A stretch of DNA of 61,557 bases, counting the filler. It is 6 parts of 6 records of this genome, joined end to end, with 100 filler letters (N's around TTAATTAATTAA, not from the genome) between each part and the next. Parts side by side here need not be neighbours in the genome. Positions count along the whole stretch, not along the records: positions 20,916 to 34,856 come from SRR31156797_29601; 5 more parts are not named here. The stretch is one strand, 5' to 3'. Below are positions 4,178 to 43,803 of this stretch, in pieces. The position numbers were made by a program, and so were the translations under genes. Numbering within the stretch: position 1 is the stretch's first letter; every line of letters starts with the position of its first letter. Below the pieces are notes generated by a model that had not been told where the DNA came from, ran no database searches, and saw nothing but the letters and a program-made list of their open reading frames with translations.

Positions 4178-4302
4178 AAAAACCCTTTGTTGTTTTCCCG
4201 ATCATACAAAACCGGGGATTGTCCGGAATGTCGTGAATAATAATTCACTTATTCGACTATATTTCCGGGCATATTCAAAAGGGAACAATTAGATCAATAG
4301 CT

Positions 4303-8826: not shown

Positions 8827-8926
8827 NNNNNNNNNNNNNNNNNNNNNNNNNNNNNNNNNNNNNNNNNNNNTTAATTAATTAANNNNNNNNNNNNNNNNNN
8901 NNNNNNNNNNNNNNNNNNNNNNNNNN
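8827..8926. other. Artificial contig spacer
   Basis: N44-TTAATTAATTAA-N44. Confidence 0.99.
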
Positions 8927-15509: not shown

Positions 15510-15609
15510 NNNNNNNNNNNNNNNNNNNNNNNNNNNNNNNNNNNNNNNNNNNNTTAATTAATTAANNNNNNNNNNNNNNNNNNNNNNNNNNNNNNNNNNN
15601 NNNNNNNNN
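15510..15609. other. Artificial contig spacer
   Basis: N44-TTAATTAATTAA-N44. Confidence 0.99.
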
Positions 15610-20815: not shown

Positions 20816-20915
20816 NNNNNNNNNNNNNNNNNNNNNNNNNNNNNNNNNNNNNNNNNNNNTTAATTAATTAANNNNNNNNNNNNNNNNNNNNNNNNNNNNN
20901 NNNNNNNNNNNNNNN
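20816..20915. other. Artificial contig spacer
   Basis: N44-TTAATTAATTAA-N44. Confidence 0.99.
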
Positions 20916-20960
20916 TAGCAGGGGTAGGACTCGAACCTACGGCCTCCGGGTTATGAGCCG
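20916..20960 (-). tRNA. 3' half of initiator-type tRNA-Met(CAT); displaced att fragment, not a full gene
   Basis: Reverse complement CGGCTCATAACCCGGAGGCCGTAGGTTCGAGTCCTACCCCTGCTA has anticodon loop, T-arm and 3' acceptor strand; D-arm and 5' strand absent. Confidence 0.85.
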
Positions 20961-21305
20961 CAGTAGTGCTTTTTATTATTTTTTTTGTCTATCTCTATAT
21001 ATAGTCGTATTTTAGGTTTTCTAATTCAAGAGTGGAATCCCATGGATTGTCATGATTTGCCAGGTGTAATCAGGAGTTTGGTGTCAGTTTTTTGGTTATT
21101 GTATTGTCGGATCTCAATCAACCTTAAATCTAATTTTGAATAGTCACGGTAACCTTTTATATATTGGGGTTTCATTCTAAAACCTGTATAAAGATTCCGA
21201 ATAGTTGGCATCAAATAACCTACTTTATCATATTAGACAGCAGATAAATAATCATGGTATTCTTTTACATATAGATCTATGTGATAACTGTAAAAGGAAC
21301 GATCA

Positions 21306-24300
21306 ATGCAATCTACTAACTTTGATTTTCTGAAAAAGCATAACCCACTTTTCCATCAACTAGGCTCTATTGCTGAACAAAATTTTATTATAGATCCCAA
21401 TACAACCCTCATTAAACTCCGTCAACTCGGTGAAGCTATTGCTCAGGATGTCGCTGCTCGCTTAGGAATATCCTTCTATGAGAAACCTACCCAAGTAGAA
21501 CTGATTAGTAAAATTAGTAGGGAAACAAGATCAGACAGGACCATCATTGATCTATTTCATACTCTCAGGAAAGAGGGTAACAGAGCTACACATGGGTTTC
21601 AGACGAAACATAAAGAAGCTATCGACGGATTACGAATCGCTCGAGAGTTGAGTATATGGTATTATCGTTCCTTTATTGATCCCAATTTCAAGCCAATCTC
21701 TTTCAATCCACCACAAGATCCCAGTATAGAGCTGAGAGGTCTTCAAGCTCAAATCCAAATACTAAAAAATGAACTTTCTAAGACGAATCAGAAATTGGAT
21801 GATAGTCAGAGTCTTTCAAACCTTTTATCTGAAGAAAAGCATCAGTATGAAATATTAGCAGAACAGATGAATGTTGAAGCAAAAATCTATCAGGAAATTG
21901 CGAAAGAACATGAACAGGCTTTAGAAGAACAGCGGACAAAATTTGAGCAGGAACTTGAAAAAACGAGAGAAGAAGCCAAAAAAGATAACAAACAAGTAAA
22001 GGAACTGACAAACCGCACCAAAAAAGCATCAGATAAAATTGTATTAAATGAAGAACTAACAAGGATTATTATTGATTTAAAACTCAACGAACTAGGTTGG
22101 GATGCTGACTCTCAAGAGTTAACCTATGCTAAAGGAGTTAGACCTGAGAAAGGTAAAAATAAAGCAATATCAGAGTGGCCAGCACAAGGTCGACAGAGTG
22201 CAGATTATGTACTTTTTGTTGGAATGACTCCTGTAGGAGTTGTAGAAGCAAAAAAAGTAAATGTTGATGTTGCTGGGAAAATAGGTCAAGCAGAGCGCTA
22301 TTCTCGTGGATTTCAATTTGATGATGCCATGATAAAACCCTGGACTCATTCTGGGAATTTTTCTGCCTGGGACGATGGAGAGTCTGGCCTTTTCAACATC
22401 CCCTTTGTCTATTCTTGCAATGGAAGACCTTATGTTAAGCAATTGGCAGAAAAGTCGGGCACCTGGTTCCGAGATACAAGAAAAATTTCAAATATTAAAA
22501 GACCTTTGGAAAACTTCCATTCTCCTGAAGGTCTCATGGATTTACTTAAACGGGATAAAGAGAAAGCAGAAGAGAATCTCAGAAAAGAGGGATTTTCCTA
22601 TCTAGGTCTAAGAGACTATCAAATCAAGGCCATTGAGAAAGTAGAAGAGGCATTGGAAGATGATAAAAAACGATGCCTTTTGGCCATGGCGACGGGAACC
22701 GGGAAAACAAGAACCATTATTGGTTTAATGTATCGTATGCTTAAAGCTGAGCGATTTAAAAGAATCCTTTTTCTTGTTGATAGGAACTCTTTAGGTGATC
22801 AAGCTCTCGATTCATTTAAAGATACAAATCTTGAACAAAACCAACCTCTCTCAAAGATTTACAATATAGCTGAATTGCGAGATATGGCTGTAGAGGCTGA
22901 GACTAGAATTCAGGTTGCAACCGTACAGGCTATGGTTCATCGGATTTTTTTATCGGAAAATCCTCCTTCTATTGATAACTATGACTGTATCATAGTCGAT
23001 GAAGCTCATAGGGGGTATGCCCTCGATCAGGAAATGACAGAAGGTGAATTACAAGTCCGAAATTCAGCACAGTATCTCTCGACCTATAGAAGGGTGTTAG
23101 ATTATTTTGATACTACATTGATCGGATTGACCGCTACTCCGGCTAAGCACACGACAGACATTTTTGGTAAGCCGGTCTTTACTTACTCCTACAGGGAAGC
23201 CGTTGCTGAAGACTGGTTGATTGATCATGAACCCCCTATTCGGTATTACACCCGCTTGGCTGAGAAGGGGATACATATCCCCAAAGGGGAAGTCGCTGTA
23301 ATCGACACGACTACAGGTAAAGTTGAAACTACCACACTTGAAGATGAAATGAACTTTAATGTGGAATCTTTTAACCGAAGTGTTATCACCGAAGGGTTTA
23401 ACGAAGTTATTTGTGATCAATTAGCTCAGGAAATCGATCCTTTCGGAGATGAGAAGACTATGATTTTCTGCGCAACTGATTTGCATGCCGATATGGTAAA
23501 AGATTTGTTGGATAAAACCTTCAACAAATACTACGGTAGTGAATACAATCAAGCTGCTGTAAAGAAGATAACAGGACAGAGTGATAAAGTCTCACAATTA
23601 ATAAAACAGTATAAGAATGAGAAGTACCCATCTATTGCTATTACTGTAGATCTGCTTACTACCGGTATTGATGTTCCGCAAATCTGTCATCTCGTTTTTT
23701 TACGACGAGTAAAATCAAGAATTTTGTATGAACAGATGATTGGTCGAGCGACCAGACGTTGTGATGAAATAGGGAAAACTGTCTTTAAAATTTATGATCC
23801 AGTAGATATCTACAAATCATTGGAGCAGGTTTCGACGATGAAACCATTAGTCAAAGATCCCAATGTCCCCTTAACTCAGTTGATCGATGAGCTCTCTAAT
23901 CCTGATAGCTATAATGTTTTGAATGAAGGCAATATGAGAACACATGCTGATGATGTCTTGGATGATATAACTCAAAGAGTCATGAGAGTCCTTAGAAAAG
24001 CGGAAAAGAAAGCTGAGAGACTTCCCGAGGTGAGAAAGAAGCTAAACGAACTGGGTACTTCCTGGGGGGTAGAGCCTTCGAAACTTCATACCTATCTGCA
24101 TTCTTTAGGTCCGAAGAAAGCCATAGAGTTTATTGAGAATAATACATACCTTGTTGAACAACTGGAAGAGGTCAAGTCAATAATCGGCTCTGATCGATGT
24201 CCTATAATTTCAGATGAACAGGATGTTATGCAGGCGAGAGAACAAGTCTTTGTCGGTTTTGAAAAACCCGAAGACTTTCTGGAAAGTTTTGATGAATTCA

Positions 24301-24764
24301 TCCGAAAAAACATTAATGAGTCGGTAGCTCTATCTACAATAGTCAATTCTCCAAAGGATTTGACAAGAGAACAGTTAAAAGAAGTAAAACTACTATTGGA
24401 TAAAGAAGGTTTTTCAGAAACAAAAGTCCAGACAGCCTGGAGAAATACCTCCAACAAGGATATAACAGCTTCTATTGTCGGTTTTATTCGACAGGCGGCG
24501 CTTGGGGAGTCTTTGGTTCCCTTCGAGCAACGTGTACAAAGTGCGATGGAGAAGATCTATTCTCTCCATAACTGGAATCCAGTCCAAAAGAAATGGCTGG
24601 ACCGTATTGCCAGTCAGTTAAAACATGAGCTTGTCATTGATGAGTCTTTTGTCAATAATGTATTTCTCGATGTGGGTGGTTCGAAAAGGATGGATAAAAT
24701 CCTGAACAACAAGCTCGATCTGGTTCTAGAAAACTTAACTGAATCCCTGTGGATTTCTGCATAA
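21306..24764 (+). CDS. hsdR: Type I restriction endonuclease subunit R, EcoKI-like
   Basis: NFDFL...DPNTTLIKLR N-terminus, ADYVLF..VVEAKK nuclease motif, MATGTGKT, DEAHRG, LTATP, LLTTGIDVP, QMIGRATR. Confidence 0.96.
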   Translation: MQSTNFDFLKKHNPLFHQLGSIAEQNFIIDPNTTLIKLRQLGEAIAQDVAARLGISFYEKPTQVELISKISRETRSDRTIIDLFHTLRKEGNRATHGFQTKHKEAIDGLRIARELSIWYYRSFIDPNFKPISFNPPQDPSIELRGLQAQIQILKNELSKTNQKLDDSQSLSNLLSEEKHQYEILAEQMNVEAKIYQEIAKEHEQALEEQRTKFEQELEKTREEAKKDNKQVKELTNRTKKASDKIVLNEELTRIIIDLKLNELGWDADSQELTYAKGVRPEKGKNKAISEWPAQGRQSADYVLFVGMTPVGVVEAKKVNVDVAGKIGQAERYSRGFQFDDAMIKPWTHSGNFSAWDDGESGLFNIPFVYSCNGRPYVKQLAEKSGTWFRDTRKISNIKRPLENFHSPEGLMDLLKRDKEKAEENLRKEGFSYLGLRDYQIKAIEKVEEALEDDKKRCLLAMATGTGKTRTIIGLMYRMLKAERFKRILFLVDRNSLGDQALDSFKDTNLEQNQPLSKIYNIAELRDMAVEAETRIQVATVQAMVHRIFLSENPPSIDNYDCIIVDEAHRGYALDQEMTEGELQVRNSAQYLSTYRRVLDYFDTTLIGLTATPAKHTTDIFGKPVFTYSYREAVAEDWLIDHEPPIRYYTRLAEKGIHIPKGEVAVIDTTTGKVETTTLEDEMNFNVESFNRSVITEGFNEVICDQLAQEIDPFGDEKTMIFCATDLHADMVKDLLDKTFNKYYGSEYNQAAVKKITGQSDKVSQLIKQYKNEKYPSIAITVDLLTTGIDVPQICHLVFLRRVKSRILYEQMIGRATRRCDEIGKTVFKIYDPVDIYKSLEQVSTMKPLVKDPNVPLTQLIDELSNPDSYNVLNEGNMRTHADDVLDDITQRVMRVLRKAEKKAERLPEVRKKLNELGTSWGVEPSKLHTYLHSLGPKKAIEFIENNTYLVEQLEEVKSIIGSDRCPIISDEQDVMQAREQVFVGFEKPEDFLESFDEFIRKNINESVALSTIVNSPKDLTREQLKEVKLLLDKEGFSETKVQTAWRNTSNKDITASIVGFIRQAALGESLVPFEQRVQSAMEKIYSLHNWNPVQKKWLDRIASQLKHELVIDESFVNNVFLDVGGSKRMDKILNNKLDLVLENLTESLWISA

Positions 24765-24779
24765 TTTAAAGGAATAAAA

Positions 24780-26360
24780 ATGGCTCAAAGCGATATTGTA
24801 CAAAAACTGTGGAATCTCTGTGATATTTTACGAGACGATGGTATTAACTACTCTGAATATGTAACGGAACTGGCTCTTCTTCTATTTATTAAAATGGAGT
24901 CTGAAATGGTTGAAGTCGATTCAGATTTTAGCCACAGACTGCCAGAAGGGTGTAGATGGAACGATCTGAGTTCTCTATCCGGTATTCCATTGATGAACAA
25001 ATACAAGAGAGTTTTATTGATTCTTTCTACTGGCATTGACACAGAAAAAGAGGTCGATAAACTCAAGGAAGATGGTTCTGAGAAGACAGAAGCCGAGATT
25101 GAAGCTGAACGACATGTAGTCGAGGACCAGTTAATTCTGTCAATATATGCTGATGCCCAGACTAGGCTTAGGGAGCCGAGACATCTGGAGTCATTAGTCT
25201 GTAAGCTCGATGAGATGAATTGGTTCAGTGATGAAAAAGACGATCTCGGAGATATGTACGAAGGACTTCTGGAAAAGAACGCTAATGAGACGAAATCCGG
25301 TGCAGGTCAGTATTTTACTCCCAGGGCTTTGATTAAGAGCATTGTGCGAATTGTCAAACCTCAGTTCGGGGAGAAAATCCAGGATCCTGCAGCCGGTACA
25401 GCCGGTTTTCTTACAGAATCTCACAAATTGATTCGTGAAGATATGTATAATCACCCACAACCGGAAATTAAGAAACATCTGGAAAAGAATTATGTTGGTA
25501 TGGAGCTTGTTCCCAATACTAGGCGTCTGGCTCTTATGAATTGTCTGCTTCATGGAATGGAAGGGGAAGATGACGGTGTTGTTCACCTCGGAAATACTCT
25601 GGGGGATCCTGGTGCAAACCTCCCCAAATCCAATGTGATTTTGACCAACCCTCCATTTGGAACAGCAAAGGGCGGTGGTGGTTCTACTAGAAGTGACCTG
25701 ACTTATGAAACTAGTAACAAGCAACTTTCCTTTCTTCAGCATATCTATCGGAATCTAAAACCAGGAGGCCGGGCCGCGGTCATTCTCCCCGATAATGTTC
25801 TTTTTGAAGCTGGTGTTGGTACTGAGATTCGTAAGGATTTGATGAATAAGTGCAATCTTCATACTATTCTGAGATTGCCTACTGGCATTTTCTATGCTGC
25901 TGGTGTTAAGACCAATGTTCTATTCTTTACCAAAGGGACAAAAGATAATATCGATCAGATTGAAAACTGTACGGAAAATGTCTGGGTTTACGATTTGAGA
26001 ACCAATATGCCTATGTTTGGTAAGAGGAATCCTTTTAATGAATCGCATTTGAAGCCATTTGAGGATCTATTTGGCGATGATCCATATGATCAGTCGGGAA
26101 GAAAAGAGGGGGATTGGAGTTTTATAGAGCATGGGAAGGTTAACTCTGATGAGAATAACAGATGGCGTTTTTTTTCTCGGGAATTTATTGATAAAAAGAA
26201 GGATAATTCTTTAGATATCTCCTGGATTAAAGATAAAGACGCTGTTGATTCTGAGGATCTGCCTGCTCCGGAGGTTCTAGCTAATGAGGCTATGAATGAG
26301 TTGAAAGGAGCTCTTGAGGATATTGAAGAATTGATTATACAGTTGAGGAATGCTAAATGA
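24780..26360 (+). CDS. hsdM: Type I R-M N6-adenine methyltransferase subunit M
   Basis: KLWNLCDILRDDG, GAGQYFTPR, DPAAGTAGFL, NPPF, LRLPTGIFYA. Confidence 0.96.
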   Translation: MAQSDIVQKLWNLCDILRDDGINYSEYVTELALLLFIKMESEMVEVDSDFSHRLPEGCRWNDLSSLSGIPLMNKYKRVLLILSTGIDTEKEVDKLKEDGSEKTEAEIEAERHVVEDQLILSIYADAQTRLREPRHLESLVCKLDEMNWFSDEKDDLGDMYEGLLEKNANETKSGAGQYFTPRALIKSIVRIVKPQFGEKIQDPAAGTAGFLTESHKLIREDMYNHPQPEIKKHLEKNYVGMELVPNTRRLALMNCLLHGMEGEDDGVVHLGNTLGDPGANLPKSNVILTNPPFGTAKGGGGSTRSDLTYETSNKQLSFLQHIYRNLKPGGRAAVILPDNVLFEAGVGTEIRKDLMNKCNLHTILRLPTGIFYAAGVKTNVLFFTKGTKDNIDQIENCTENVWVYDLRTNMPMFGKRNPFNESHLKPFEDLFGDDPYDQSGRKEGDWSFIEHGKVNSDENNRWRFFSREFIDKKKDNSLDISWIKDKDAVDSEDLPAPEVLANEAMNELKGALEDIEELIIQLRNAK

Positions 26361-27940
26361 AAGGGATTCCGGAAGAGTGGGTAGAATGCACTCTAGATGA
26401 TATAATACTAGATATAATTGGGGGGGGGACTCCATCAAAAAGAAATCAAAGTTATTATTCTGGTAAAGTACCGTTTATGACGGTTAAAGATATGAAATCC
26501 TTTCGTCCAAAAGATACAATTGATCATATAACAGATGAAGCAATATCTAATTCAAGTACAAATCTAATTCCTGAAGGAACAATTATAGTTTCAACAAGAA
26601 TGGGATTAGGGAAAATCGTACGTGTTCCATTTTCAACTGCTATTAACCAGGATTTAAAAGCTTTAATATTCTCTACTCAGATAAGTCTAGATTTTATTGA
26701 ATATTACTACAGAAATTTATCTCCATATTTAGTCAGCAAAGGAACGGGGTCAACAGTTAAAGGGATAACATTAAATGTATTAAAATCTGTTCCAATTCTA
26801 TTATCTTCATATTCTGAACAAGTGGAAATTGCTTCAAGGCTTGAACTTCTTCTTAAGCAAGTTGAAAAGATAGAAAGTCGTATTGATAGTATTCCTGAGA
26901 TTCTTAAGAGGTTTAGGCAATCTGTTCTTTCTGCTGCTGTTAGTGGGAAGCTTACGGAGGATTGGCGGGGAAATCGTGACTTTGGATCTAGTGTAAAATT
27001 AGGAAAATGTGCAGAAAACATTCGTTATGGTACTTCTAAAAAGTGTACTGCTAAAGCTGAAGGAATACCTGTATTAAGAATTCCTAATATAAAAGATGGT
27101 ATAATTGATCATGAAGATTTAAAATATGCTTCATTTGATGACAAGGAACTAATGTCATTTGCACTTAATGAAGGTGATATTTTATTAATAAGATCAAATG
27201 GAAGCATAGATTTGGTTGGAAAACCTGCATTGATATCAAAAAATGATGAGAAGTGTCTCTTTGCAGGATATCTAATAAGAATAAGGCTTAATAAATCTAA
27301 AGTTCTTCCAAAATATTTATTGTTCTGTTTGCAAAGTCCTCAAGTAAGAAATCAAATTGAGATTACTGCAAGATCAACAAGTGGTGTGAATAATATAAAC
27401 AGTCAGGAACTAGCTGATTTAGAATTTATTTTGCCTAATATAGATGAGCAAATGGAAATAATAAAACGAGTTGAGAATTATTTATCGTTATCAGATTCTA
27501 TCGATTTAAAGGTTAGACATACGATGAGTCAGATTAATAATCTAAACCAATCAATTCTTGCAAAAGCATTTAATGGGGAGTTGACTAAAGAGTGGAGAGA
27601 GTTGAATCAGGAGCTGATTTCTGGTGAGAACTCTGCTTATGCTTTGCTTGAGAAAATTCATGAAGCAAAAAAGATGATTCAAACTAGCAATATGAAACGA
27701 AAAAAGGGAGTAAAAAAGGTAAAAATGAAAGAAATCATTCCTATAACTTCTGCTTTAAAAAATGCAGGAAAATTACTTACTGCTCAAGAGCTACTCCAAG
27801 AAGCTGGGTATCCAAATGATAGCAACACAGAAACCTTAGAAAACTTTTTTCTTGATATTAGAGAAGCTCTAGAAAGTGGAAATGTTAAAAGAACTCGTAT
27901 TGAATCTGAAGATGTGTTTGAGCTAATAAACAAGAGATAA
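26357..27940 (+). CDS. hsdS: Type I R-M specificity subunit S with extra C-terminal domain
   Basis: Two TRDs; EcoKI-type conserved regions RFRQSVLSAAVSGKLTEDWR and QSILAKAFNGELTKEWR...ISGENSA; ~71 additional residues. Confidence 0.94.
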   Translation: MKGIPEEWVECTLDDIILDIIGGGTPSKRNQSYYSGKVPFMTVKDMKSFRPKDTIDHITDEAISNSSTNLIPEGTIIVSTRMGLGKIVRVPFSTAINQDLKALIFSTQISLDFIEYYYRNLSPYLVSKGTGSTVKGITLNVLKSVPILLSSYSEQVEIASRLELLLKQVEKIESRIDSIPEILKRFRQSVLSAAVSGKLTEDWRGNRDFGSSVKLGKCAENIRYGTSKKCTAKAEGIPVLRIPNIKDGIIDHEDLKYASFDDKELMSFALNEGDILLIRSNGSIDLVGKPALISKNDEKCLFAGYLIRIRLNKSKVLPKYLLFCLQSPQVRNQIEITARSTSGVNNINSQELADLEFILPNIDEQMEIIKRVENYLSLSDSIDLKVRHTMSQINNLNQSILAKAFNGELTKEWRELNQELISGENSAYALLEKIHEAKKMIQTSNMKRKKGVKKVKMKEIIPITSALKNAGKLLTAQELLQEAGYPNDSNTETLENFFLDIREALESGNVKRTRIESEDVFELINKR

Positions 27941-27942
27941 AA

Positions 27943-29448
27943 ATGAAATTAGATTATTTGGAAATCAGAAGTCCTTATAAAAACCTCAATAATGTAACAA
28001 TTGATTTTGATGAAAACAACTTGATGACTGTTGTTGTTGGTAGAAATGGTTCTGGAAAGTCGAATGTTCTAGAAGCTATTGTTGAAATTTTCAGGAATCT
28101 TGATCTAGGAGAAACAGCTCCTTTTTCATATGTAATAAAATATAAACTTGAAAATGATTTATATGGGAAGTGGATAACTATAGTTGCTGATTCTCAATAT
28201 AAAACACCGGCTAAGCAATACAAAATCACATGTGAAATAGAATCTAAGGTTCAAGTTATTCCTTTTTCTAAAGTAATGAGAGATAGAGAAGGACATTCAG
28301 ATTATCTACCTAAATACATTTTTGCGTATTATTCAGGTCCTAGCGATCGGTTGGAGAAACACTTTAAAACTCATAGAACAAGATTTTATAAAGCATTGCT
28401 AAATAATAAGATTGATCTTGCGGGAGATATCAGACCATTGTTTTATGCCAAACCTTACCATAGCCAATTCGTATTACTCGCTTTTTTTCTGAGTAAGCAA
28501 AATGAACAGGAGAGAGCTTTTTTAAAAAAGCATATTGGAATTGAGAGTCTTGACTCAATACACTTTGTTTTACGACGACCTGATTGGACAAAAAACAAGA
28601 AAGAACTCTTCTGGGGTGCCTATGGAGTTGTTCGAGAGTTTTTAGAAAACCTATATCCATTTGCTATGGCACCTGTGAAAGTTACTAGGAATGAGGATGT
28701 TTCTCTTACAGGTAGTAATATTATTAATGAGTTTTTCCATCTTTTTTTACCAAACGTTGATACCTTGAGAGAATTTGCAAAAGATTTATCTCCAGAAGTT
28801 TTTTTTAAAATGCTTGAAAGTACCCTGTTATCAGAAATTATTTCTGAAGTGAGTATAAGGGTAAAAACTACAAGTTGTGATAAACCTTTAACTTTTCGTG
28901 AATTAAGTGAAGGTGAGCAGCAGTTATTAACCGTTCTAGGATTACTTAAGTTTACTGGTGGAAAGGATTCCTTATTTCTATTAGATGAGCCTGATACTCA
29001 CCTGAACCCTTCTTGGGTTGTTAAATACCTTGACTTCCTAAAGGATTTTGTACCAGATCATAAATCAAGTCATTTGTTAATGGTTACGCATCAACCTTTA
29101 GCAATTGCAGAATTGGAAAAAGAGCAGTTACAGGTTATGTCGAATGATGCTAATCAGATAACAGCAAAGCAGCCAGTAGAAAATCCAAGAGGAATGGGAA
29201 TCAATCTAATTCTTAGAAGTGATATTTTTGGAATGAAAACAACATTAGACAATGACACAAATTTAAAAGTATTAAGAAGGAATCTACTAGCTAGTAAGGA
29301 ATCACTTACTGATGAAGAAGAATCCGAACTAGAATCATTGAGTGAAGTGTTAGACAATTTAGGTTTTTCCTTTTCTGATGATGATCCTGATTACTCCGAT
29401 TTTTTATATAATCGATATCATAAAATATCATCAGGAAAAACTAAGTAA
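27943..29448 (+). CDS. ABC-family (AAA_21-like) ATPase, Septu PtuA-like
   Basis: Walker A GRNGSGKS, signature LSEGEQ, Walker B/D-loop LLDEPDTHLNP, H-loop VTHQP; no TM segments. Confidence 0.88.
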   Translation: MKLDYLEIRSPYKNLNNVTIDFDENNLMTVVVGRNGSGKSNVLEAIVEIFRNLDLGETAPFSYVIKYKLENDLYGKWITIVADSQYKTPAKQYKITCEIESKVQVIPFSKVMRDREGHSDYLPKYIFAYYSGPSDRLEKHFKTHRTRFYKALLNNKIDLAGDIRPLFYAKPYHSQFVLLAFFLSKQNEQERAFLKKHIGIESLDSIHFVLRRPDWTKNKKELFWGAYGVVREFLENLYPFAMAPVKVTRNEDVSLTGSNIINEFFHLFLPNVDTLREFAKDLSPEVFFKMLESTLLSEIISEVSIRVKTTSCDKPLTFRELSEGEQQLLTVLGLLKFTGGKDSLFLLDEPDTHLNPSWVVKYLDFLKDFVPDHKSSHLLMVTHQPLAIAELEKEQLQVMSNDANQITAKQPVENPRGMGINLILRSDIFGMKTTLDNDTNLKVLRRNLLASKESLTDEEESELESLSEVLDNLGFSFSDDDPDYSDFLYNRYHKISSGKTK

Positions 29449-30272
29449 TGCGTTGGATATGTAAAGCAGATATTGAGGAATCTCTAACAGAAGAATGGCG
29501 AAATAACGCAGATGCAGCTTTAAAGGAATTAGAGAATGCATCTACTCCTCAAGATAGAAAAAGTAAAATTGATTCAGCTGCTTCTGGAAAAATCTGGAGG
29601 GACTTTTATGATTTGTTGCCTGATGATTTGAAAAAGAAATGCTGGTATTGTGAAGCTGAAGAAATTCGTTCTGATATGCCAGTTGATCACTTTAGGCCAA
29701 AAAAGAAAATTACTGAGGATGATAGTCATCCTGGATATTGGTGGCTTACATATGATTGGAAAAACTATAGATGTGCTTGTACTTATTGTAATAGTAGAAG
29801 AGTATTTGAAAATTCTGAAGGAGGAAAGCAAAATAGTTTTCCACTGATTGATCCTAGTAAGCGAGCTTCAAGACCTGAAGATTTATTAGATCTTGAAGAA
29901 CCTGCTTTTCTAGACCCCTTAGATTGTGATGATTATAAATTATTATGGTTTGATAATGATGGTTTTCCTATTATAAATCCCAATAGAATTTCTACTACAG
30001 CCCAATTGAAAGTTGATAATTCAATAAGTATTTTCCATTTACATGAAGGAAAGTTAGTAAAAAATAGAAACCGGATACGTATAAAAATAAACAATATTGT
30101 TCGTGAACTGAAACAAGCAAAAAAAGTTGGAAATTTACGAGTTGTAAAGACCAAGAAAGAAGAATTAACAAAAATGATACGTCCTTCAGAGATGTTGTCT
30201 TTAACGGCATTGGTTTATTTGAAGCAACATAAGCATATAGATGAGGTTAAAGATATTCTAAACCCAGAATAG
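29448..30272 (+). CDS. HNH endonuclease, Septu PtuB-like
   Basis: CWYCE...VDHFRPK...YWWLTYDWKNY..ACTYCN; TAATG stop/start overlap with the ATPase. Confidence 0.85.
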   Translation: MRWICKADIEESLTEEWRNNADAALKELENASTPQDRKSKIDSAASGKIWRDFYDLLPDDLKKKCWYCEAEEIRSDMPVDHFRPKKKITEDDSHPGYWWLTYDWKNYRCACTYCNSRRVFENSEGGKQNSFPLIDPSKRASRPEDLLDLEEPAFLDPLDCDDYKLLWFDNDGFPIINPNRISTTAQLKVDNSISIFHLHEGKLVKNRNRIRIKINNIVRELKQAKKVGNLRVVKTKKEELTKMIRPSEMLSLTALVYLKQHKHIDEVKDILNPE

Positions 30273-30314
30273 ATGTGAAAGTACAGATTTAATAATTTAA
30301 ATGTGGAGAAGTTA

Positions 30315-32864
30315 ATGTACGACTGGATACCATTTTTTAATGAACTTACTCAAAAAACATTAGAAAATAAACAATCTTTAAAATCCATATCCAGAAAAGT
30401 ATTTGGAGAAGATTTCGTTCTACTTCAGTGGCCGATGGACCCATTTACCTTCATCTACGTCATAGCAAGTAGAAACAGTGAGAAAAACTTCAGCGAATTA
30501 AAAAGAAGTCTTGAACTAGATTCTGCCGTACCATCTGACCGGATATTCCCAACTCCACAAGGTAACTCAAATAGAGGTTTTCACAACAACGGAGACTATC
30601 TTCCATTATCTGAAGAAGATATGTGGGAGTTCTTTGAACTTGTTATATCTGATCCTCGAGGTGATTCAATATTAGCTTATTTCAATAATTCATTAAAAAT
30701 AGGCAATGTAGGTATCACAAAGCTCACTCAGGCATTATTTCTTATTAATCCGGAATACTTCATTCCAATAGATCCACGAACCGCAATTTTATTCCCTGGA
30801 AGAAATACCAATCAACTGAAAAAAGTCATCGAGAAAGATGGCTTTGCTGGATATTTGAGACTGATGGAAGAGCTGAAATCAAGATACTTCGGTTGTCAAT
30901 TCTGGGAAATGAATAGGCTGGCTTTTGCCATTATTGGAGAGAATCTAAAACCCGACTTTGACAATTCATGGCATCAAATTAGTTCTCAATGGGATGGTGA
31001 AGGCGGTGGAGATTATATTGACAAATGGTTTGAAGACAGTCAAATCGCTATTGGATATACAGATGGTGATTACTTTGAAGTATTTAAAAAACTCTCAAAG
31101 GGAAATGTCATTATAGCTAAAAAAGGAATGAGTACTTTCCATGGCTTAGGAGTAATCTTAAATAATTCTATTTCTTCAGCATTAGACGTTAGACCTATTA
31201 CTAGAGACATTATTTGGATTTTGAAAGATAAATCTAAAGAGCTTAAGCACTTTAATAGAGTTACTATTTGCCAAACTCAACAAGATAAAGTTTATGATCA
31301 GATCGCTGATTCTTATCCCGATATTTGGGAGTTTCTATCAGTTTTTTCAACCGAAAGTCAACAAGATTCATCCTCATTAACAGGAGAAACGCATATGAAA
31401 TCCAACTTTCCTAAAAATCAGATCCTCTATGGACCTCCAGGTACAGGAAAGACTTACAGGACTATAGATGAAGCTCTCAAAATATGTGATGTAGCAATTG
31501 ATGATTGGAGTGATCGAACAGAGTTAAAGCGTGAATTTGATAAGTTGGTATCAGAAGGTAGAATTTTATTTACAACATTTCATCAAAGTATGTCCTATGA
31601 AGATTTTATAGAAGGAATTAAACCTGTACTAGAAGATTCTGGAGAGGAAGAATTATCATACAAAATCGAAAAGGGGCTTTTCTCTAAGATAGCGATTAAA
31701 GCTTTGTACTCAATAATCTCTGAGAATGAGGACTTTGCCAATACGTCGTCAGAAATACTTGATTTCTCTACTGCTTATGATCAATATATTGCAAATTTAG
31801 AAGAGTCTTTAACTCTACAAGACGATGTACAAATACAAACTAGAAACGGACATATTGTACTTGATTCAATATCCGACCAGAGAAATCTTAGAGTCAAACA
31901 TCCTGGCAGAGAAAGAAAGTATACAGTTTCAAAGAATCGACTATCACAACTTCACAAAGCATTCAAAGATGTAAATCAAGTTAATAATATTGACTTTGAG
32001 TTTAGAGTAACTATAGGAGGATCAAATTCAACCTGTTATTGGGCTGTACTGAAAGAAGTTCAAAATTATATGAAGAGTAATAATTACTCTAAGGAAACGG
32101 TTAATCGTCTTACAAATCCATCCTATGAGGAAATGGAACAATATAATGATAATTTTATGGAGAATGATTTTTCTATAATTTCTGGAAAATCTTATGTCCT
32201 TATTATCGATGAAATAAACAGGGGTAATATCTCCTCTATCTTTGGTGAATTGATCACATTAATCGAGGATGACAAGCGACTGGGTGCCGATGAAGAATTA
32301 AAAGTTACACTTCCATATAGCAAAAAAGCTTTTTCAGTACCGTCTAACCTGTACATTATTGGAACTATGAATACCGCCGACAGAAGTGTTGAATCTCTTG
32401 ATTCAACTCTTAGGAGAAGGTTTTCATTTACAGAAATAATGCCAGAGCCTGATTTATTATCCAAGAATGGATTCTCAGAGTTGAATTTTGAGAATAGGGA
32501 AGATTCTCTAAATCTCGCAATTCTATTGCAGACTATTAACAACCGTATCGAAAAACTGAAAGATCGAGACCATAGAATCGGTCATTCCTATTTTTATACT
32601 TTATTAGGAAAGAATACAGGAGAGGAACTTCGGGGGGAGTTGGAAAACATTTTCTCTAATAAAATCATCCCATTACTCGAAGAGTATTTCTATGGGGATT
32701 GGGAAAAAATTGGAATGATACTTGGAAGCAGTTTTGTTAAGAAGGAAAATCTGAAAGTTATATTCGCAGATGACTTCACTGAAAGCAGTGATGATATTGA
32801 TGATCTGAAGTATTCAATTAGGGAAAAATCAAACTGGAACTTTAAAAGCATCTATAATGGATAA
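30315..32864 (+). CDS. mcrB: McrB-family AAA+ GTPase with long N-terminal region (ATG 30315 after GGAG; GTG 30303 is the alternative)
   Basis: YGPPGTGKT, TFHQSMSYEDFIEG, IIDEINRGN, GTMNTADRS, LRRRF, IGHSYF, IIPLLEEYF. Confidence 0.93.
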   Translation: MYDWIPFFNELTQKTLENKQSLKSISRKVFGEDFVLLQWPMDPFTFIYVIASRNSEKNFSELKRSLELDSAVPSDRIFPTPQGNSNRGFHNNGDYLPLSEEDMWEFFELVISDPRGDSILAYFNNSLKIGNVGITKLTQALFLINPEYFIPIDPRTAILFPGRNTNQLKKVIEKDGFAGYLRLMEELKSRYFGCQFWEMNRLAFAIIGENLKPDFDNSWHQISSQWDGEGGGDYIDKWFEDSQIAIGYTDGDYFEVFKKLSKGNVIIAKKGMSTFHGLGVILNNSISSALDVRPITRDIIWILKDKSKELKHFNRVTICQTQQDKVYDQIADSYPDIWEFLSVFSTESQQDSSSLTGETHMKSNFPKNQILYGPPGTGKTYRTIDEALKICDVAIDDWSDRTELKREFDKLVSEGRILFTTFHQSMSYEDFIEGIKPVLEDSGEEELSYKIEKGLFSKIAIKALYSIISENEDFANTSSEILDFSTAYDQYIANLEESLTLQDDVQIQTRNGHIVLDSISDQRNLRVKHPGRERKYTVSKNRLSQLHKAFKDVNQVNNIDFEFRVTIGGSNSTCYWAVLKEVQNYMKSNNYSKETVNRLTNPSYEEMEQYNDNFMENDFSIISGKSYVLIIDEINRGNISSIFGELITLIEDDKRLGADEELKVTLPYSKKAFSVPSNLYIIGTMNTADRSVESLDSTLRRRFSFTEIMPEPDLLSKNGFSELNFENREDSLNLAILLQTINNRIEKLKDRDHRIGHSYFYTLLGKNTGEELRGELENIFSNKIIPLLEEYFYGDWEKIGMILGSSFVKKENLKVIFADDFTESSDDIDDLKYSIREKSNWNFKSIYNG

Positions 32865-34113
32865 TATCCTCCGAGTCTATGAACACGAAAAACTACACAT
32901 CTCTATTGGAGGTTTCACAAAGAAACACTACAAATCACTAATCGCTTTTGGTGAAGAGCACGGGTTCAAATACTTCAACATAGGTCGAAGCTCTGTAAAA
33001 TTCAAATCCTATGTTGGGATTATTCAGGTCGGAAAACTCATAATTGAAATCCTCCCCAAAACAAACAAAGCTGATAACTCCTCTGAATCTAAGGAGAACT
33101 GTCACAACCTTCTATTAACCATGCTGGAACGAAGCGGATTGATCTCTATTAGTCACCCTGAAAAAGCGAGCCAGAAACTGAAAAAGCAAAACCTTCTGGA
33201 ATTATTCTTCATTCAATTTATTAAGGAAGCTGAAGAGTTAATACACAATGGTTTAAAGAAGCAGTACAGAAAAGAAAATACAAACAAGAAAGCTTTGAAG
33301 GGTAAGTTGTTATTCACTGAAAATCTCCGGGTGAATATGGTCCATAAGGAGAAATTTTATACATCGGCTGAAACCTATGACAGAGATAATCTGTATAATC
33401 AAATTATCAAAAAAGCTCTAAGGATAATTTGTGATGTAACCCAGAACAAAACAACTAAGAGTGATGCTTCAAACCTTCTTCTTCATATTGAAGATATTAA
33501 AGATGTCAAAATTTCAGAGAAACAGCTGGAAAGAATAAAATATAACAGGCATACAGAACGCTACAGAATCGCTGTTGAGTTGGCTCGATTAATTATTCTG
33601 CAAATGATGCCGGATTTAACAGGGGGTAAAAATTCGGTTATTGCTCTTCTATTTGATATGAATCAGCTTTTTGAACTCTTTATAACTAGAGAATTACAGA
33701 AAACTATAAAAGATTATTCTGTACTGTCTCAGAAGCCCCAGAAGTATTTACTTGAAAATTCTGATCAAGTTACATCTTTTATGATGAAGCCAGATATCAC
33801 CATTAAAAAAAATGGTATACCCATTTCTATTATTGATGCAAAGTGGAAATTACTAAATCCCAAAGATAAAAAGAGGGGAATCTCACAAAATGACCTTTAT
33901 CAGCTTTATACATATGCAAATGAATACGATTGTCAGCGGGTTGTTTTGATTTACCCTAAGTGGAAAAAAGAACAGAAAACAGTTGATGAATTTAAATTTA
34001 AAGGAAATCAGAGAAAGATATTTATCCTTTCTGTACCTTTAGATGGAATTATGCAACCGATATATTTCAGACAACTAATGAAGAATCTCATGGAGTCAAT
34101 TATATGTGAGTAA
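32857..34113 (+). CDS. mcrC: McrC-family PD-(D/E)xK nuclease
   Basis: YVGIIQV..IEILPK, LLFDMNQLFE, KPDI...IIDAKWK, DLYQLYTYA; overlaps the mcrB stop. Confidence 0.93.
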   Translation: MDNILRVYEHEKLHISIGGFTKKHYKSLIAFGEEHGFKYFNIGRSSVKFKSYVGIIQVGKLIIEILPKTNKADNSSESKENCHNLLLTMLERSGLISISHPEKASQKLKKQNLLELFFIQFIKEAEELIHNGLKKQYRKENTNKKALKGKLLFTENLRVNMVHKEKFYTSAETYDRDNLYNQIIKKALRIICDVTQNKTTKSDASNLLLHIEDIKDVKISEKQLERIKYNRHTERYRIAVELARLIILQMMPDLTGGKNSVIALLFDMNQLFELFITRELQKTIKDYSVLSQKPQKYLLENSDQVTSFMMKPDITIKKNGIPISIIDAKWKLLNPKDKKRGISQNDLYQLYTYANEYDCQRVVLIYPKWKKEQKTVDEFKFKGNQRKIFILSVPLDGIMQPIYFRQLMKNLMESIICE

Positions 34114-34826
34114 AAGAAACTAACTAGAGCCTTTCTTATTATGGACTCCAGTGATTCTGAATTAAGTATCCCCTTTTGTGTCGGGATACGGAGTCCTATG
34201 TCGGGAGAAGGTTTTATCTCAATCTTGGATTCAATATGTGAAATTTCTACTCTGTAAGGAGCTTGAGATTGGAATAATCCATCGGTTTATTGAGAAGGTA
34301 ATAAAGGTGAATACCTCTTGGACTCTTACAGACAAGGGATGGCCAGTAATCAAATGAACCAGTTATCTCATAATAGAGATCCACAAGAGGTGGGTTCGGG
34401 GTGTATCCATCCCAACAGGGGGTAGGGAGGTTGTGGAAGTCTATGTCTATTCCCAGGGCTGGTGTCCTGAAACTGGATAACTAGCCCACTTCATAACCTT
34501 TCGTGATTGTTGATTGAATACGTTTAAGGGTTAAAGGACTGGGTTGGATGATCCATTGAGACTTTCCACCATAGTCTATTTTCTTAAAATATCGATGTGC
34601 TTATTTAATAGAGCTAATACCTCCCACCTCTCCGGTAAGGGGATTCCTGAATTTTACATAAAAAAGGGCCTGACGAATTCCGTCTGTACAAATAAAAGAC
34701 CGGTTGTCCATATCAACTCCGAATCAAGAAGTTTGGTATCACCTCTTGGTTACAGTAGATTTGATAAAAATACCGGTCTTTCGGTAGCTTTTTGCTACAT
34801 CCTTACTAGGTAAGGAATTATTTATA

Positions 34827-34856
34827 TAGCAGGGGTAGGACTCGAACCTACGGCCT
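34827..34856 (-). tRNA. 3' end of tRNA-Met, probably the intact gene (attL), cut by contig end; CCA not encoded
   Basis: Identical to 20916-20945; T-arm GTAGGTTCGAGTCCTAC and acceptor strand CCCTGCTA. Confidence 0.7.
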
Positions 34857-34956
34857 NNNNNNNNNNNNNNNNNNNNNNNNNNNNNNNNNNNNNNNNNNNN
34901 TTAATTAATTAANNNNNNNNNNNNNNNNNNNNNNNNNNNNNNNNNNNNNNNNNNNN
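34857..34956. other. Artificial contig spacer
   Basis: N44-TTAATTAATTAA-N44. Confidence 0.99.
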
Positions 34957-43703: not shown

Positions 43704-43803
43704 NNNNNNNNNNNNNNNNNNNNNNNNNNNNNNNNNNNNNNNNNNNNTTAATTAATTAANNNNNNNNNNNNNNNNNNNNNNNNNNNNNNNNNNNNNNNNN
43801 NNN
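43704..43803. other. Artificial contig spacer
   Basis: N44-TTAATTAATTAA-N44. Confidence 0.99.

Follow-up and report, generated by a model that had tools for sequence, protein, structure and literature searches.

The gene prrC is located directly after hsdS, the specificity gene of a restriction-modification system of type I. The PrrC protein, embedded in a type IC locus, is kept latent and becomes activated when a phage inhibits the enzyme (PMC12707154). In Ronin, HsdM and HsdS restrain a toxin without HsdR and respond to the anti-restriction proteins Ocr and ArdA (10.1101/2023.04.06.535777). PtuAB, in turn, is sequestered by retrons (PMC12819146), and RloB is found in Campylobacter type I loci (cited in PMC10440598). 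Of Menshen operons, 27.9% adjoin methylases and systems of the BREX, type I or type III kind. The literature searched yielded no published description of a coupled hsdM-hsdS-ptuA-ptuB system, the arrangement discussed below.

The locus lies in a window of 61,557 nucleotides, the whole stretch of DNA that was analysed, which is made up of contigs chained by 100-nt linkers (N44-TTAATTAATTAA-N44) at 8827, 15510, 20816, 34857, and 43704. Those at 20816-20915 and 34857-34956 border the contig of the locus, and the adjacent "chromosome" in the window is made up of unrelated contigs, none a true neighbour of the locus. Seven genes occupy 21306-34113 of this contig. Its features are as follows.

20916..34856, no strand: assembly contig of 13,941 bp (~35% GC by profile) with the entire locus inside, delimited by linkers
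20916..20945, minus strand: left one of two identical 30-nt terminal repeats, from a repeat search and direct sequence reading
21306..24764, plus strand: hsdR, type I restriction subunit of 1152 aa (PADLOC REase_I, 5.2e-264)
24780..26360, plus strand: hsdM, type I N6-adenine methyltransferase of 526 aa (PADLOC MTase_I, 9.8e-202)
26357..27940, plus strand: hsdS, specificity subunit of 527 aa (PADLOC Specificity_I, 1.5e-106, residues 4-450)
27943..29448, plus strand: ptuA, Septu-type ABC (SMC/Rad50-like) ATPase of 501 aa (PADLOC PDLC00293, 9.6e-198)
29448..30272, plus strand: ptuB, HNH nuclease of 274 aa (PADLOC PDLC00330, 2.6e-89)
30303-32864, plus strand: McrB-like GTPase of 853 aa (Pfam AAA_5)
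32857-34113, plus strand: McrC (Pfam McrBC, 5.5e-79)
34827..34856, minus strand: right copy of the 30-nt terminal repeat, from a repeat search

HsdR matches ResIII, EcoEI_R_C, and Helicase_C in Pfam, with a DUF4145 region at its N-terminus and EcoEI_R_C as its tail, and HsdM matches N6_Mtase (2.8e-76) and carries motif I (D202-F210) and NPPF (290-293). HsdS is made up of two variable target-recognition domains (TRDs), conserved helices and a C-terminal extension, and its length exceeds that of the best-matching PADLOC profiles (459-461 positions). The earlier note had placed an ATPase gene 2 nt after hsdS, coupled by a TAATG overlap to an HNH gene, and both junctions read as claimed: the hsdS stop TAA is followed by 2 nt and then the ptuA ATG at 27943, and TAATG at 29446-29450 is common to the ptuA stop and the ptuB start. 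PADLOC, at the E-values listed, identifies the ATPase as PtuA and the HNH protein as PtuB; in Pfam, PtuA matches AAA_21, AAA_15, and SMC_N, and the HNH match of PtuB is weak (0.0024). The impression, gained by eye, that hsdS and these two genes are more AT-rich than hsdR and hsdM is borne out, with GC of 0.323, 0.326, and 0.327 in hsdS, ptuA, and ptuB versus 0.390 and 0.411 in hsdR and hsdM, and GC3 of 0.20-0.23 versus 0.34-0.37. No retron component was detected, in keeping with the earlier statement that reverse transcriptase is absent: a domain search found a reverse transcriptase domain in none of the seven genes of the contig, and Rfam returned a single sub-threshold match on it. By reading, the terminal 30-mer corresponds to the 3' end of a minus-strand tRNA (T-arm and acceptor), and the likeness to a tRNA extends beyond the left copy up to ~20970; ARAGORN found no whole tRNA. 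The right copy could be a direct repeat of the att type, or else arise from overlap in the assembly graph. What stands of the att-bounded island described earlier is the identical 30-mer at both contig ends, while its boundedness is partly an artefact of contig concatenation.

The ATPase motifs of PtuA had been called intact, and all are present: Walker A at G33-S40, the signature at L321-Q327, Walker B at L344-E349, the D-loop at P350-D351, and H383, conserved at 95% or more in 80 homologues. The nuclease residues of PtuB (D80-H81, N106, and N115) are at least 95% conserved in 73 homologues. In sequence, PtuA resembles characterised PtuA only distantly, its match to 8ee4 (E 3e-4) being confined to the C-terminal lobe, and a search of the PDB with the PtuB sequence found no match. 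The predicted PtuB model (pLDDT 93.7) retrieves PtuB chains as 11 of its 11 top Foldseek matches in the PDB.

The pairing of hsdS and ptuA was surveyed in the best-scoring 80 of 418 relatives, one genome per species. Where at least 1,700 nt of upstream DNA is available, hsdS directly precedes ptuA on the same strand in 72/72 loci (70 by tblastn and two by Pfam Methylase_S), which answers the neighbourhood question raised in the earlier note and shows that the pairing goes beyond chance. The surveyed loci come from Pseudomonadota, Bacillota, Actinomycetota, Planctomycetota, Bacteroidota, and Acidobacteriota. The hsdS stop lies -26 to +28 nt from the ptuA start in 67 of the 68 loci for which both ORFs were resolved by script, and 196 nt away in the remaining one. 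Across 401 Pseudomonadota genomes, PtuA matches occur in nine (E <= 1e-10). Four are strong and all have the order hsdM-hsdS-ptuA-ptuB (the query centre, one on the same contig as the surveyed locus L037, and two with 33-35% identity), two remoter matches likewise follow hsdS, and the three weakest are AAA_21 ATPases of another kind, whose short flanks show no hsdS. Among six plasmid matches (H1-H6), an S subunit is annotated overlapping the match in three (H3-H5), and an S-subunit gene lies directly upstream in all three inspected (H1, H4, and H6). The module is present in 11 of 5,426 complete E. coli genomes, and two inspected E. coli modules read methylase, S subunit, AAA ATPase, hypothetical. 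No member of the PtuA clade was seen away from hsdS in samples with readable upstream DNA. The module is located on plasmids, beside integrases, and in Tn7-like contexts. Two surveyed loci (L067 and L069) are 99-100% identical although they come from two orders.

The C-terminal extension of HsdS provides a candidate point of contact between the two halves of the module, at the following positions.

27599..27937, plus strand: C-terminal tail of HsdS (aa 415-527), in which a basic linker leads into a winged-helix domain at ~aa 460-524
28555..28860, plus strand: middle region of PtuA (aa 205-306), within which lies the surface predicted to contact the HsdS tail

An alignment of 68 HsdS proteins of 497-624 aa shows that the tail is conserved, and its model (H-H-H-beta-hairpin, pLDDT ~88 in the domain) retrieves generic winged-helix folds. 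Among the 401 Pseudomonadota genomes the full-length tail occurs only in two close, PtuA-positive ones; the tails of divergent members are homologous (hhalign 95-96%), and one locus (L071) encodes the tail on its own, as a 75-aa ORF directly before ptuA. Variation in the tail goes with PtuA (Spearman 0.77) and not with HsdM (0.39), whereas the HsdS helices that contact HsdM track HsdM (0.62 and 0.61). Median tail identity is 74% in nine pairs of loci with PtuA at least 80% and HsdM at most 60% identical, against 17% in six pairs of the reverse kind, where HsdM is close and PtuA divergent. The predicted complex of PtuA with the HsdS tail reaches an ipSAE of 0.76 in three of three runs (best control 0.00), with contacts agreeing at 54% or more and partner pLDDT of at least 71. 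That value is reached by 51/78 solved complexes and 2/108 mismatched pairs, and the same test is passed by 7/44 blind neighbouring gene pairs, the score being a model confidence and no measurement. The predicted interface coincides with the most conserved residues of both PtuA and the tail; on PtuA it comprises residues 205-209, 238-250, 266-270, and 302-306, among which S205, H207, F208, P244, K246, H266, F268, P270, V303, and R306 are invariant in the PtuA alignment. We read the HsdS tail as a probable adaptor for PtuA. The conserved gene order across phyla, often without a restriction subunit, argues for one coupled system, in which, very probably, ptuA-ptuB is the effector arm of a conserved hsdM-hsdS-ptuA-ptuB module and PtuAB is tethered to HsdM2-HsdS via the tail. 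The earlier view of one cassette functionally tied to the restriction-modification core thus gains support from the 72/72 adjacency, the tail, its co-variation, and the predicted complex.

The restriction subunit is an optional member of the conserved module. Among the best 80 of 418 relatives, hsdR is absent from 23 of the 49 fully flanked loci, and these 23 contain no ORF of at least 550 aa with a ResIII or helicase domain. A search for cognate-family HsdR anywhere in the genome or record was negative in all four cases without a local hsdR, while its positive control matched. On the PtuA tree, loci with and without hsdR are interspersed (18 changes, equal to a shuffled mean of 18.5). Since 23/49 loci do without it, whole HsdRMS cannot be the general sensor, and the proposal that the restriction-modification complex is the partner of PtuAB survives for HsdM and HsdS and fails for the complete enzyme. 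Gene content 3' of ptuB varies among related loci, with an McrC match in 3 of 79 of those among the best 80 of 418. The McrB-like GTPase and McrC are a neighbouring type IV system outside the conserved module, and the idea of a three-layer island that includes mcrBC by design is not upheld as a general feature.

Tentatively, we prefer a reading in which the methyltransferase core restrains PtuAB and anti-restriction proteins trigger its release. The winged-helix domain of HsdS, on its basic linker, very probably docks onto the PtuA middle region, and PtuA with its HNH partner PtuB would thereby be tethered to the HsdM2-HsdS methyltransferase core. The DNA-reading core would keep PtuAB latent until an infection disturbs that core, as DNA-mimic anti-restriction proteins of the Ocr/ArdA type might do, and PtuAB, freed or activated, might then abort infection through ATP-controlled HNH cleavage of DNA or tRNA. 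If so, PtuAB would back up restriction in loci with hsdR, the window included, and the methyltransferase core would serve as bait in loci without it. Ronin, PrrC and the retrons that sequester PtuAB are precedents for such a guard.

Alternatively, PtuAB may be a restriction arm directed by methylation, a possibility we consider less probable. Here HsdM2-HsdS on unmethylated foreign DNA would recruit or license the tethered PtuA-PtuB to cut DNA while self DNA is shielded by the same methyltransferase, so that PtuAB would either replace HsdR or serve beside it as a further R module, and hsdM-hsdS-ptuA-ptuB would be a new kind of restriction-modification system. The same anatomy fits both readings, and the predicted HsdS tether would position the nuclease at the recognition complex. 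The loci without hsdR or a large ResIII or helicase ORF, and the four hsdR-less genomes or records with no cognate HsdR anywhere, favour such an arm. So does HsdM itself, in which NPPF and motif I are intact in 23/23 loci without hsdR (and 36/36 with it), though, given the interspersion on the PtuA tree, this retention may reflect just recent loss of hsdR. The TRDs are exchanged between otherwise near-identical modules, hsdR-less ones included, as expected under selection for new specificities; L023 and L026, for example, share 89% identity in PtuA and 92% in TRD1 but 17% in TRD2. Swapped TRDs and intact methyltransferase motifs, which a pure bait would not need, suggest that DNA specificity and methylation matter. 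A precedent is MADS, which is methylation-based and needs the ATPase-nuclease pair MAD3-MAD4 (PMC13662399), and HsdM, HsdS, and PtuA of the window match mad2, mad5, and mad3 (4.1e-55, 8.6e-55, and 6.5e-19). On the other hand, two restriction nucleases sharing one core seem redundant in loci that have hsdR, such as that of the window, and characterised PtuAB are abortive-infection effectors, acting partly on tRNA-Tyr (PMC13096335). An arm that cuts unmethylated DNA would also put each newly entered host at risk, but the module spreads freely, as the near-identical pair from two orders illustrates.

It is also conceivable, if improbable, that the two halves are independent neighbours and that ptuA-ptuB is a self-contained Septu in type I hotspots of defence cargo, neither binding nor sensing HsdM or HsdS. 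Type I loci here do collect cargo, since Fic and PIN genes are lodged in related operons (15 and two, respectively, of 17 ORFs tested, all of them either between hsdR and hsdM or shortly upstream of the latter). Published parallels exist: TgvAB inside a Vibrio cholerae type I cluster is a type IV enzyme of its own (PMC12409362), Septu inside Hma operons gives no gain over HmaA against T4 (PMC11232893), and two genes suffice for characterised Septu (PMC13096335). Independence is difficult to reconcile with the unbroken adjacency over phyla, where identity is 33-69% and stop and start codons abut, with a dedicated HsdS tail that tracks PtuA rather than HsdM, with a predicted interface on conserved residues (ipSAE 0.76 versus 0.00), or with the failure to see a clade member away from hsdS where upstream DNA is readable. 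Least likely of all is an addiction module, in which PtuAB would be a putative toxin checked by HsdM-HsdS, loss of the methyltransferase genes would be lethal, and the cassette would be stabilised without sensing phage: mobile contexts (plasmids, nearby integrases, Tn7-like), maintenance in loci without hsdR, ABC ATPase and nuclease pairs within toxin-antitoxin networks (PMC10440598), and a predicted tether compatible with stoichiometric restraint all accord with it, but every related family with data acts against phage, and TRD turnover is left unexplained.

Several described systems come close to the locus. Type I Septu (E. coli PtuAB, 8EE4/8EEA; Septu Ec-B88) shares the adjacent, overlapping genes, one for an ABC ATPase whose motifs are intact and one for its HNH partner. 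Characterised members, however, act as two genes alone (PMC13096335), whereas the clade of the window follows an hsdS with an adaptor tail, and its PtuA is remote in sequence (8ee4, E 3e-4) and its PtuB without a PDB sequence match. In type I-A retrons, or type II Septu (Ec78, also Eco7, and Ec83), a PtuAB-type effector has been co-opted by a separate sensor that is bound to nucleic acid and restrains it (PMC12819146), and the PtuB fold is shared by Foldseek. The locus differs in having no reverse transcriptase or retron RNA found, and its partner is instead the HsdM-HsdS core, via a predicted protein-tail contact.

PrrC/EcoprrI (and RloC) also combine an ABC-type ATPase and a nuclease, encoded within a type I locus. 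PrrC, however, is one polypeptide with an anticodon-nuclease domain, and the locus has two proteins, uses an HNH nuclease and adds a winged-helix tail to HsdS; Pfam and PADLOC found no PrrC-type match in the window proteins. Ronin (hsdM, hsdS, and the 61-aa RonA) tightly links a type I core, mostly without hsdR, to a lethal effector, which parallels the 23/49 related loci without hsdR. Its effector is a small membrane protein rather than an ATPase-nuclease pair, and the available portion of its report describes no HsdS adaptor tail.

MADS (mad1-mad8) resembles the locus in its type-I-like methyltransferase and specificity genes and its required ABC ATPase-nuclease pair (PMC13662399), but it has eight genes and a Toprim/DUF4276 nuclease rather than HNH, and the other mad genes are absent from the locus. 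Finally, type I operons also house RloA/RloB, TgvAB, Menshen, and PARIS, as ATPase-nuclease pairs or as defence genes of other sorts. These are described as variable cargo (independent in the case of TgvAB), whereas the hsdS-ptuA link is constant over phyla and is matched by an altered HsdS.

The window contains five linkers of 100 nt, each built as N44-TTAATTAATTAA-N44, at 8827-8926, 15510-15609, 20816-20915, 34857-34956, and 43704-43803. These linkers are artificial, and the window is therefore a chain of six contigs and not one molecule; GC content varies among the contigs from about 35% to 55%, and readings across any linker are unsafe. The locus studied here occupies one 13,941-bp contig (20916-34856) with a GC content near 35%, and because the contigs are concatenated, the sequences that flank it in the window are not its true neighbors. 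For the same reason, the earlier note's description of an att-bounded island in a chromosome cannot stand as worded. The same 30-mer is present at both contig ends (20916-20945 and 34827-34856), its minus strand reading as T-arm and acceptor end, the 3' part of a tRNA, and about 55 nt at the left end (20916-20975) are tRNA-like. No whole tRNA was found on the contig by ARAGORN, and the contig carries no integrase. A tRNA-inserted island broken by the assembler at direct repeats would look like this. Alternatively, the terminal 30-mers may be the overlap of a circular molecule. A megablast search against complete E. coli genomes returned no match for the contig or for one neighboring contig. 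The contig encodes seven genes, all on the plus strand:

21306-24764, plus strand: hsdR (REase_I, 5.2e-264; ResIII)
24780-26360, plus strand: hsdM (MTase_I, 9.8e-202; N6_Mtase)
26357-27940, plus strand: hsdS (Specificity_I, 1.5e-106; Methylase_S)
27943-29448, plus strand: ptuA, 501-aa ABC ATPase (PADLOC PDLC00293, 9.6e-198)
29448-30272, plus strand: ptuB, 274-aa HNH protein (PADLOC PDLC00330, 2.6e-89)
30303-32864, plus strand: McrB-like, 853 aa
32857-34113, plus strand: McrC

The local reading of the genes in the earlier note holds well. The hsdS stop codon TAA is followed by two bases and the ptuA ATG, the ATPase and HNH genes overlap in TAATG, and hsdS, ptuA, and ptuB are more AT-rich at third codon positions (GC3 of 0.20-0.23 vs. 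0.34-0.37 for hsdR and hsdM). A reverse transcriptase domain is absent from all seven contig proteins, as claimed, and a search for retron RNA with Rfam at E ≤ 1 gave one unrelated weak match on the contig. HsdR, HsdM, and HsdS are all present with the domains of type I restriction-modification, and HsdM of the window shows motif I (D202-F210) and NPPF (N290-F293), both shared by at least 95% of 72 HsdM proteins. HsdR begins with an additional domain that precedes the usual nuclease and motor, an N-terminal DUF4145 region (residues 1-225, 21306-21980) that also matches the PADLOC candidate PDC-M16A (2.7e-24). The N-terminal 370 residues of the McrB-like protein have only a weak PDC-S02 match and may form an unusual DNA-reading domain. 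The roughly 740 nt after mcrC (34114-34856) hold a single listed ORF, unassigned and of 89 aa (34544-34813).

The pair behind hsdS is Septu by profile, and PtuB qualifies by fold as well. The PDLC00293 match of PtuA (9.6e-198) spans residues 1-494 and is accompanied by Pfam AAA_21 (8.2e-20); its motifs are intact, as had been noted, with Walker A, Walker B, signature, and H-loop conserved in 80 homologs. PtuB is encoded directly downstream of ptuA, and its D80-H81, N106, and N115 are invariant. When the PtuB model (pLDDT 93.7) was compared with the PDB using Foldseek, the top 11 matches were all PtuB chains, from the E. coli Septu system and from retrons Ec78, Ec83, and Eco7, with 8eea_G the best (3.1e-4); the twelfth was another chain of the retron Ec83 entry (E 2.1), and unrelated entries never scored better than E 3. 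By sequence, PtuA matches PDB entries over short stretches only (AriA, 5.6e-7; retron Ec83 and Ec78 ATPases, 8e-5 to 1.4e-4; 8ee4, 3e-4), and PtuB has no PDB match. As far as these short stretches go, the likeness to solved PtuA, AriA, and the retron ATPases is remote, and the pair is best placed as a separate clade inside Septu in the wide sense. The usual picture of a self-contained two-gene system, alone or with a retron, does not describe it, as all 72 relatives that could be read follow hsdS and the HsdS tail is linked to PtuA. More than 7,000 protein clusters match the ATPase. In two comparisons of surveyed loci (L003 vs. L023 and L005 vs. L021), PtuA is 82-83% identical and PtuB just 34-35%, from which it follows that two PtuB types are exchanged behind one PtuA clade.

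Gene order was surveyed as the earlier note had proposed. Twenty-three homologs were aligned, one genome per species was scanned, and the best 80 loci of 418 relatives were taken and read by tblastn with the window's seven proteins, ORF calling, and Pfam; 79 of these loci contain the ptuA start, and in one the contig end cuts ptuA. Among these best 80 of 418, hsdS lies directly upstream of ptuA on the same strand in 72/72 loci with at least 1,700 nt upstream (70 assigned by tblastn, L053 and L076 by Pfam). The end of hsdS is visible in four of the seven loci with shorter upstream sequence (L029, L048, and L074 by tblastn; L071 by profile comparison), and the other three have 258 nt or less. 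Where both ORFs are resolved, the hsdS stop and ptuA start are separated by -26 to +28 nt in 67 of 68 loci, with 196 nt in L044, and an overlap of 1 or 4 nt between ptuA and ptuB is the usual case. The place of the methyltransferase gene is less fixed: hsdM precedes hsdS in most loci and comes after ptuB in nine, immediately in eight (L053, L061, L063, L064, L071, L072, L074, and L080) and one gene further in L079. As the position of hsdM varies, hsdS-ptuA-ptuB forms the constant, translationally tight core. The other genes behind ptuB differ from locus to locus and include integrases, Mrr, and housekeeping genes, and with an McrC match in just 3/79 loci, the idea that mcrBC belongs to the design was abandoned.

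The relatives are spread over Pseudomonadota, Bacteroidota, Bacillota, Actinomycetota, Planctomycetota, Verrucomicrobiota, Acidobacteriota, Chloroflexota, and others. Loci from Comamonas composti (L067) and Luteimonas padinae (L069) are 98-100% identical in PtuA, PtuB, HsdM, and all HsdS regions, which suggests that the module crossed from one order to another very recently. Between hsdR and hsdM, or immediately ahead of hsdM in loci lacking hsdR, some loci carry a SoFic-like Fic gene (L003, L005, L007, L012-L014, L016, L019, L027, L032, L038, L058, L060, L065; also L094 at 3624-4703). Of 17 ORFs tested at this position, 15 were of this kind, with a PIN gene in its place in L030 and L031.

Independent samples were also drawn. 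A set of 401 Pseudomonadota genomes, drawn evenly, gave nine matches at E ≤ 1e-10. The four strong matches are all arranged hsdM-hsdS-ptuA-ptuB; one is the query centre, one is on the same contig as L037, and the two that are only 33-35% identical have hsdR upstream. Two remoter ATPases (L086 and L087, in genomes G084 and G157) have PDLC00293 as their best PADLOC model and overlap the end of hsdS by 4 nt. Both are followed by another kind of partner, about 350 aa long, which gives matches to the PADLOC candidates PDC-M62B and PDC-M01B but none in Pfam at E ≤ 1e-5. The L086 ATPase is divided between two ORFs. The three weakest matches are other AAA_21 ATPases with no hsdS visible in their short flanks. 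For three of six plasmid matches, the feature column gives an S subunit overlapping the match, and each of the three that were inspected has an S-subunit gene just upstream; the two sets together cover five of the six. Vibrio anguillarum plasmid p15 (L095) holds a decayed copy, hsdR-hsdM-hsdS-ptuA in short annotated fragments. The module is present in 11 of 5,426 complete E. coli genomes; the two inspected are annotated as a methylase, an S subunit, an AAA ATPase, and a hypothetical protein, with hsdR absent within 9 kb. E. coli NCTC11121 carries such a four-gene module lacking hsdR.

Retention of the module does not depend on hsdR. Forty-nine loci come with 10 kb of upstream and no less than 4.4 kb of downstream sequence; HsdR was matched in 26 of them and not in the other 23. 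That hsdR is hidden downstream or has diverged was rejected for the loci tested: in those without an HsdR match, all 45 ORFs scanned (550 aa or longer) lack ResIII, HSDR_N, and helicase domains. In four genomes or records lacking a local hsdR, a search for cognate-family HsdR found none anywhere; the same search matched in a control genome with an in-locus hsdR and in 4 of 14 named control genomes. Fragments of hsdR are kept in L065 and L022. On a quick PtuA tree, the hsdR states are scattered (18 changes vs. a shuffled mean of 18.5), and HsdM retains an intact motif I and NPPF in 23/23 loci without hsdR and 36/36 with it. Because the hsdR labels are scattered and the methyltransferase motifs are intact everywhere, neither the tree pattern nor motif decay is informative as to whether the core guards PtuAB or uses it as a restriction arm.

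The probable link between the two halves of the module is at the end of HsdS, which is 497-624 aa long in these loci. Beyond the distal conserved helix there is a lysine/arginine-rich linker and then a conserved domain of about 65 aa, modeled as three helices and a β-hairpin in a winged-helix arrangement (pLDDT ~88). For this C-terminal 113-aa tail, Foldseek returned only generic winged-helix matches (best E 6.7e-3); the kleisin C-terminal domains that bind SMC heads are some among many such matches, and a kleisin-like domain is not claimed. Full-length matches to the tail profile occur in 2 of 401 genomes, both with the close PtuA clade, and the remaining matches are partial, covering an ordinary HsdS helix or the first helices of IHF/HU. 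The latter match tail positions 62-97 (~27782-27889) at E 1e-6 to 1e-2 in proteins of about 100 aa; these short matches occur in dozens of the 401 genomes, and one such ORF was inspected (L100, 1477-1773). The two divergent members have a homologous tail (hhalign 95-96%). In L071, the winged-helix domain is a separate 75-aa ORF (676-903) between a truncated-looking hsdS and ptuA, which may reflect either a sequencing error or a gene that is split in nature.

Across 1,653 pairs from 58 loci, which are not independent, so that these figures describe and do not test, tail identity follows PtuA identity (Spearman 0.77) more closely than HsdM identity (0.39), while the HsdM-contacting helices of HsdS follow HsdM (0.62 and 0.61). 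The tail has a median identity of 74% in the nine pairs with PtuA at 80% or more and HsdM at 60% or less, and of 17% in the six pairs of the reverse kind, where HsdM is alike and PtuA unlike. The target-recognition domains (TRD1 and TRD2) are uncorrelated with anything and are swapped between near-identical modules, as between L021 and L023 (PtuA 99%, TRD1 97%, TRD2 18% identity). HsdS carries a PtuA-linked adaptor, and the catalytic motifs of HsdM, PtuA, and PtuB are intact. Complex prediction, made without the PtuA and tail alignments, lends support, at the level of a model, to binding of the tail to PtuA: ipSAE was 0.76 in all three runs, and the best control gave 0.00. A score of 0.76 was attained by 51 of 78 solved complexes, by 2 of 108 mismatched pairs, and by 7 of 44 blind neighboring gene pairs. 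Contact agreement among the runs was at least 54%, with partner pLDDT of at least 71. The predicted contacts involve PtuA 205-209, 238-250, 266-270, and 302-306 and tail 62-107 (HsdS 476-521) and include the most conserved residues of both.

Some coupling of PtuAB to the type I core is very probable. The earlier note had the restriction-modification complex restrain the ATPase-HNH pair until anti-restriction proteins strike; the coupling is strongly supported, and the trigger stays a proposal. PtuAB would be tethered to the HsdM2-HsdS core and take its cue from it. The core may keep PtuAB latent, with anti-restriction proteins or other damage to the core setting it free, and by analogy we favor this trigger tentatively, at somewhat less than an even chance. 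PARIS is a precedent for such guarding. Others are Ronin (10.1101/2023.04.06.535777), PrrC (PMC12707154), and PtuAB held by a retron (PMC12819146). Alternatively, the core may license PtuAB on unmethylated DNA, as a restriction arm. The turnover of the target-recognition domains, the conservation of methyltransferase motifs in loci without hsdR, and the MADS precedent (PMC13662399) speak for this, and we regard it as possible if rather unlikely. It is also possible, if again rather unlikely, that both hold and that hsdM-hsdS-ptuA-ptuB is an unrecognized class of restriction-modification. Recruited through the winged-helix tail of the specificity subunit, the SMC-like ABC ATPase and its HNH nuclease partner would then destroy unmethylated DNA instead of HsdR or beside it, and the same tether would make the core a sensor of anti-restriction proteins. 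Mere co-location of PtuAB and type I genes, an arrangement documented for TgvAB as the independent cargo of a type I locus (PMC12409362), is improbable beside so constant an hsdS-ptuA-ptuB order. An addiction role for the module is less probable still.

Septu is among the commonest defense systems, and its activating signal is only partly known. A large PtuA clade here shows a visible and testable input, a type I methyltransferase core that would act via a defined adaptor domain. If the link holds, retrons would no longer be the only case of PtuAB wired to a foreign sensor; this would be the second, and it would explain the persistence of many "orphan" hsdM-hsdS pairs without hsdR. With its four genes, single tail, and few interface residues, it would also offer a simple setting for studying how restriction complexes communicate with abortive-infection arms or with alternative nucleases. 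Annotation would be affected as well: where tools list "RM type I" next to "Septu", they would be dividing a single machine.

A literature search, extended to passages of PMC8565338, PMC12065111, PMC13223576, PMC11232893, PMC12707154, PMC13064643, PMC10440598, PMC12904381, and two preprints, found no description of an hsdS-bound Septu clade, an HsdS adaptor tail, or four-gene modules without hsdR. The Campylobacter rlo genes, cited in PMC10440598, were an early instance of type I loci that hold an ATPase and nuclease pair, and others have been noted since; Septu occurs within Hma operons (PMC11232893). Retron type I-A, or Septu type II, has a reverse transcriptase and msr-msd RNA beside ptuAB, both of which are absent here. 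MADS comprises eight genes, mad1-mad8, including the Toprim MAD4, whereas the contig has only mad2-, mad3-, mad5-, and mad8-like matches, all secondary and the mad8 one weak and on HsdR, and all seven of its genes are assigned elsewhere. Ronin requires a membrane toxin gene of about 61 aa tightly linked to hsdM and hsdS, and the spacing in 26357-30303 leaves no room for one between hsdS, ptuA, and ptuB. In PrrC and RloC, one protein combines the ABC ATPase head with an anticodon nuclease at its C-terminus, whereas two genes are present here, and no PrrC-type family was found among the Pfam or PADLOC matches. PARIS pairs AriA with a Toprim/DUF4435 AriB; in this locus, AriA models reach only 8.7e-22, far short of the PtuA models, and the partner is an HNH protein.
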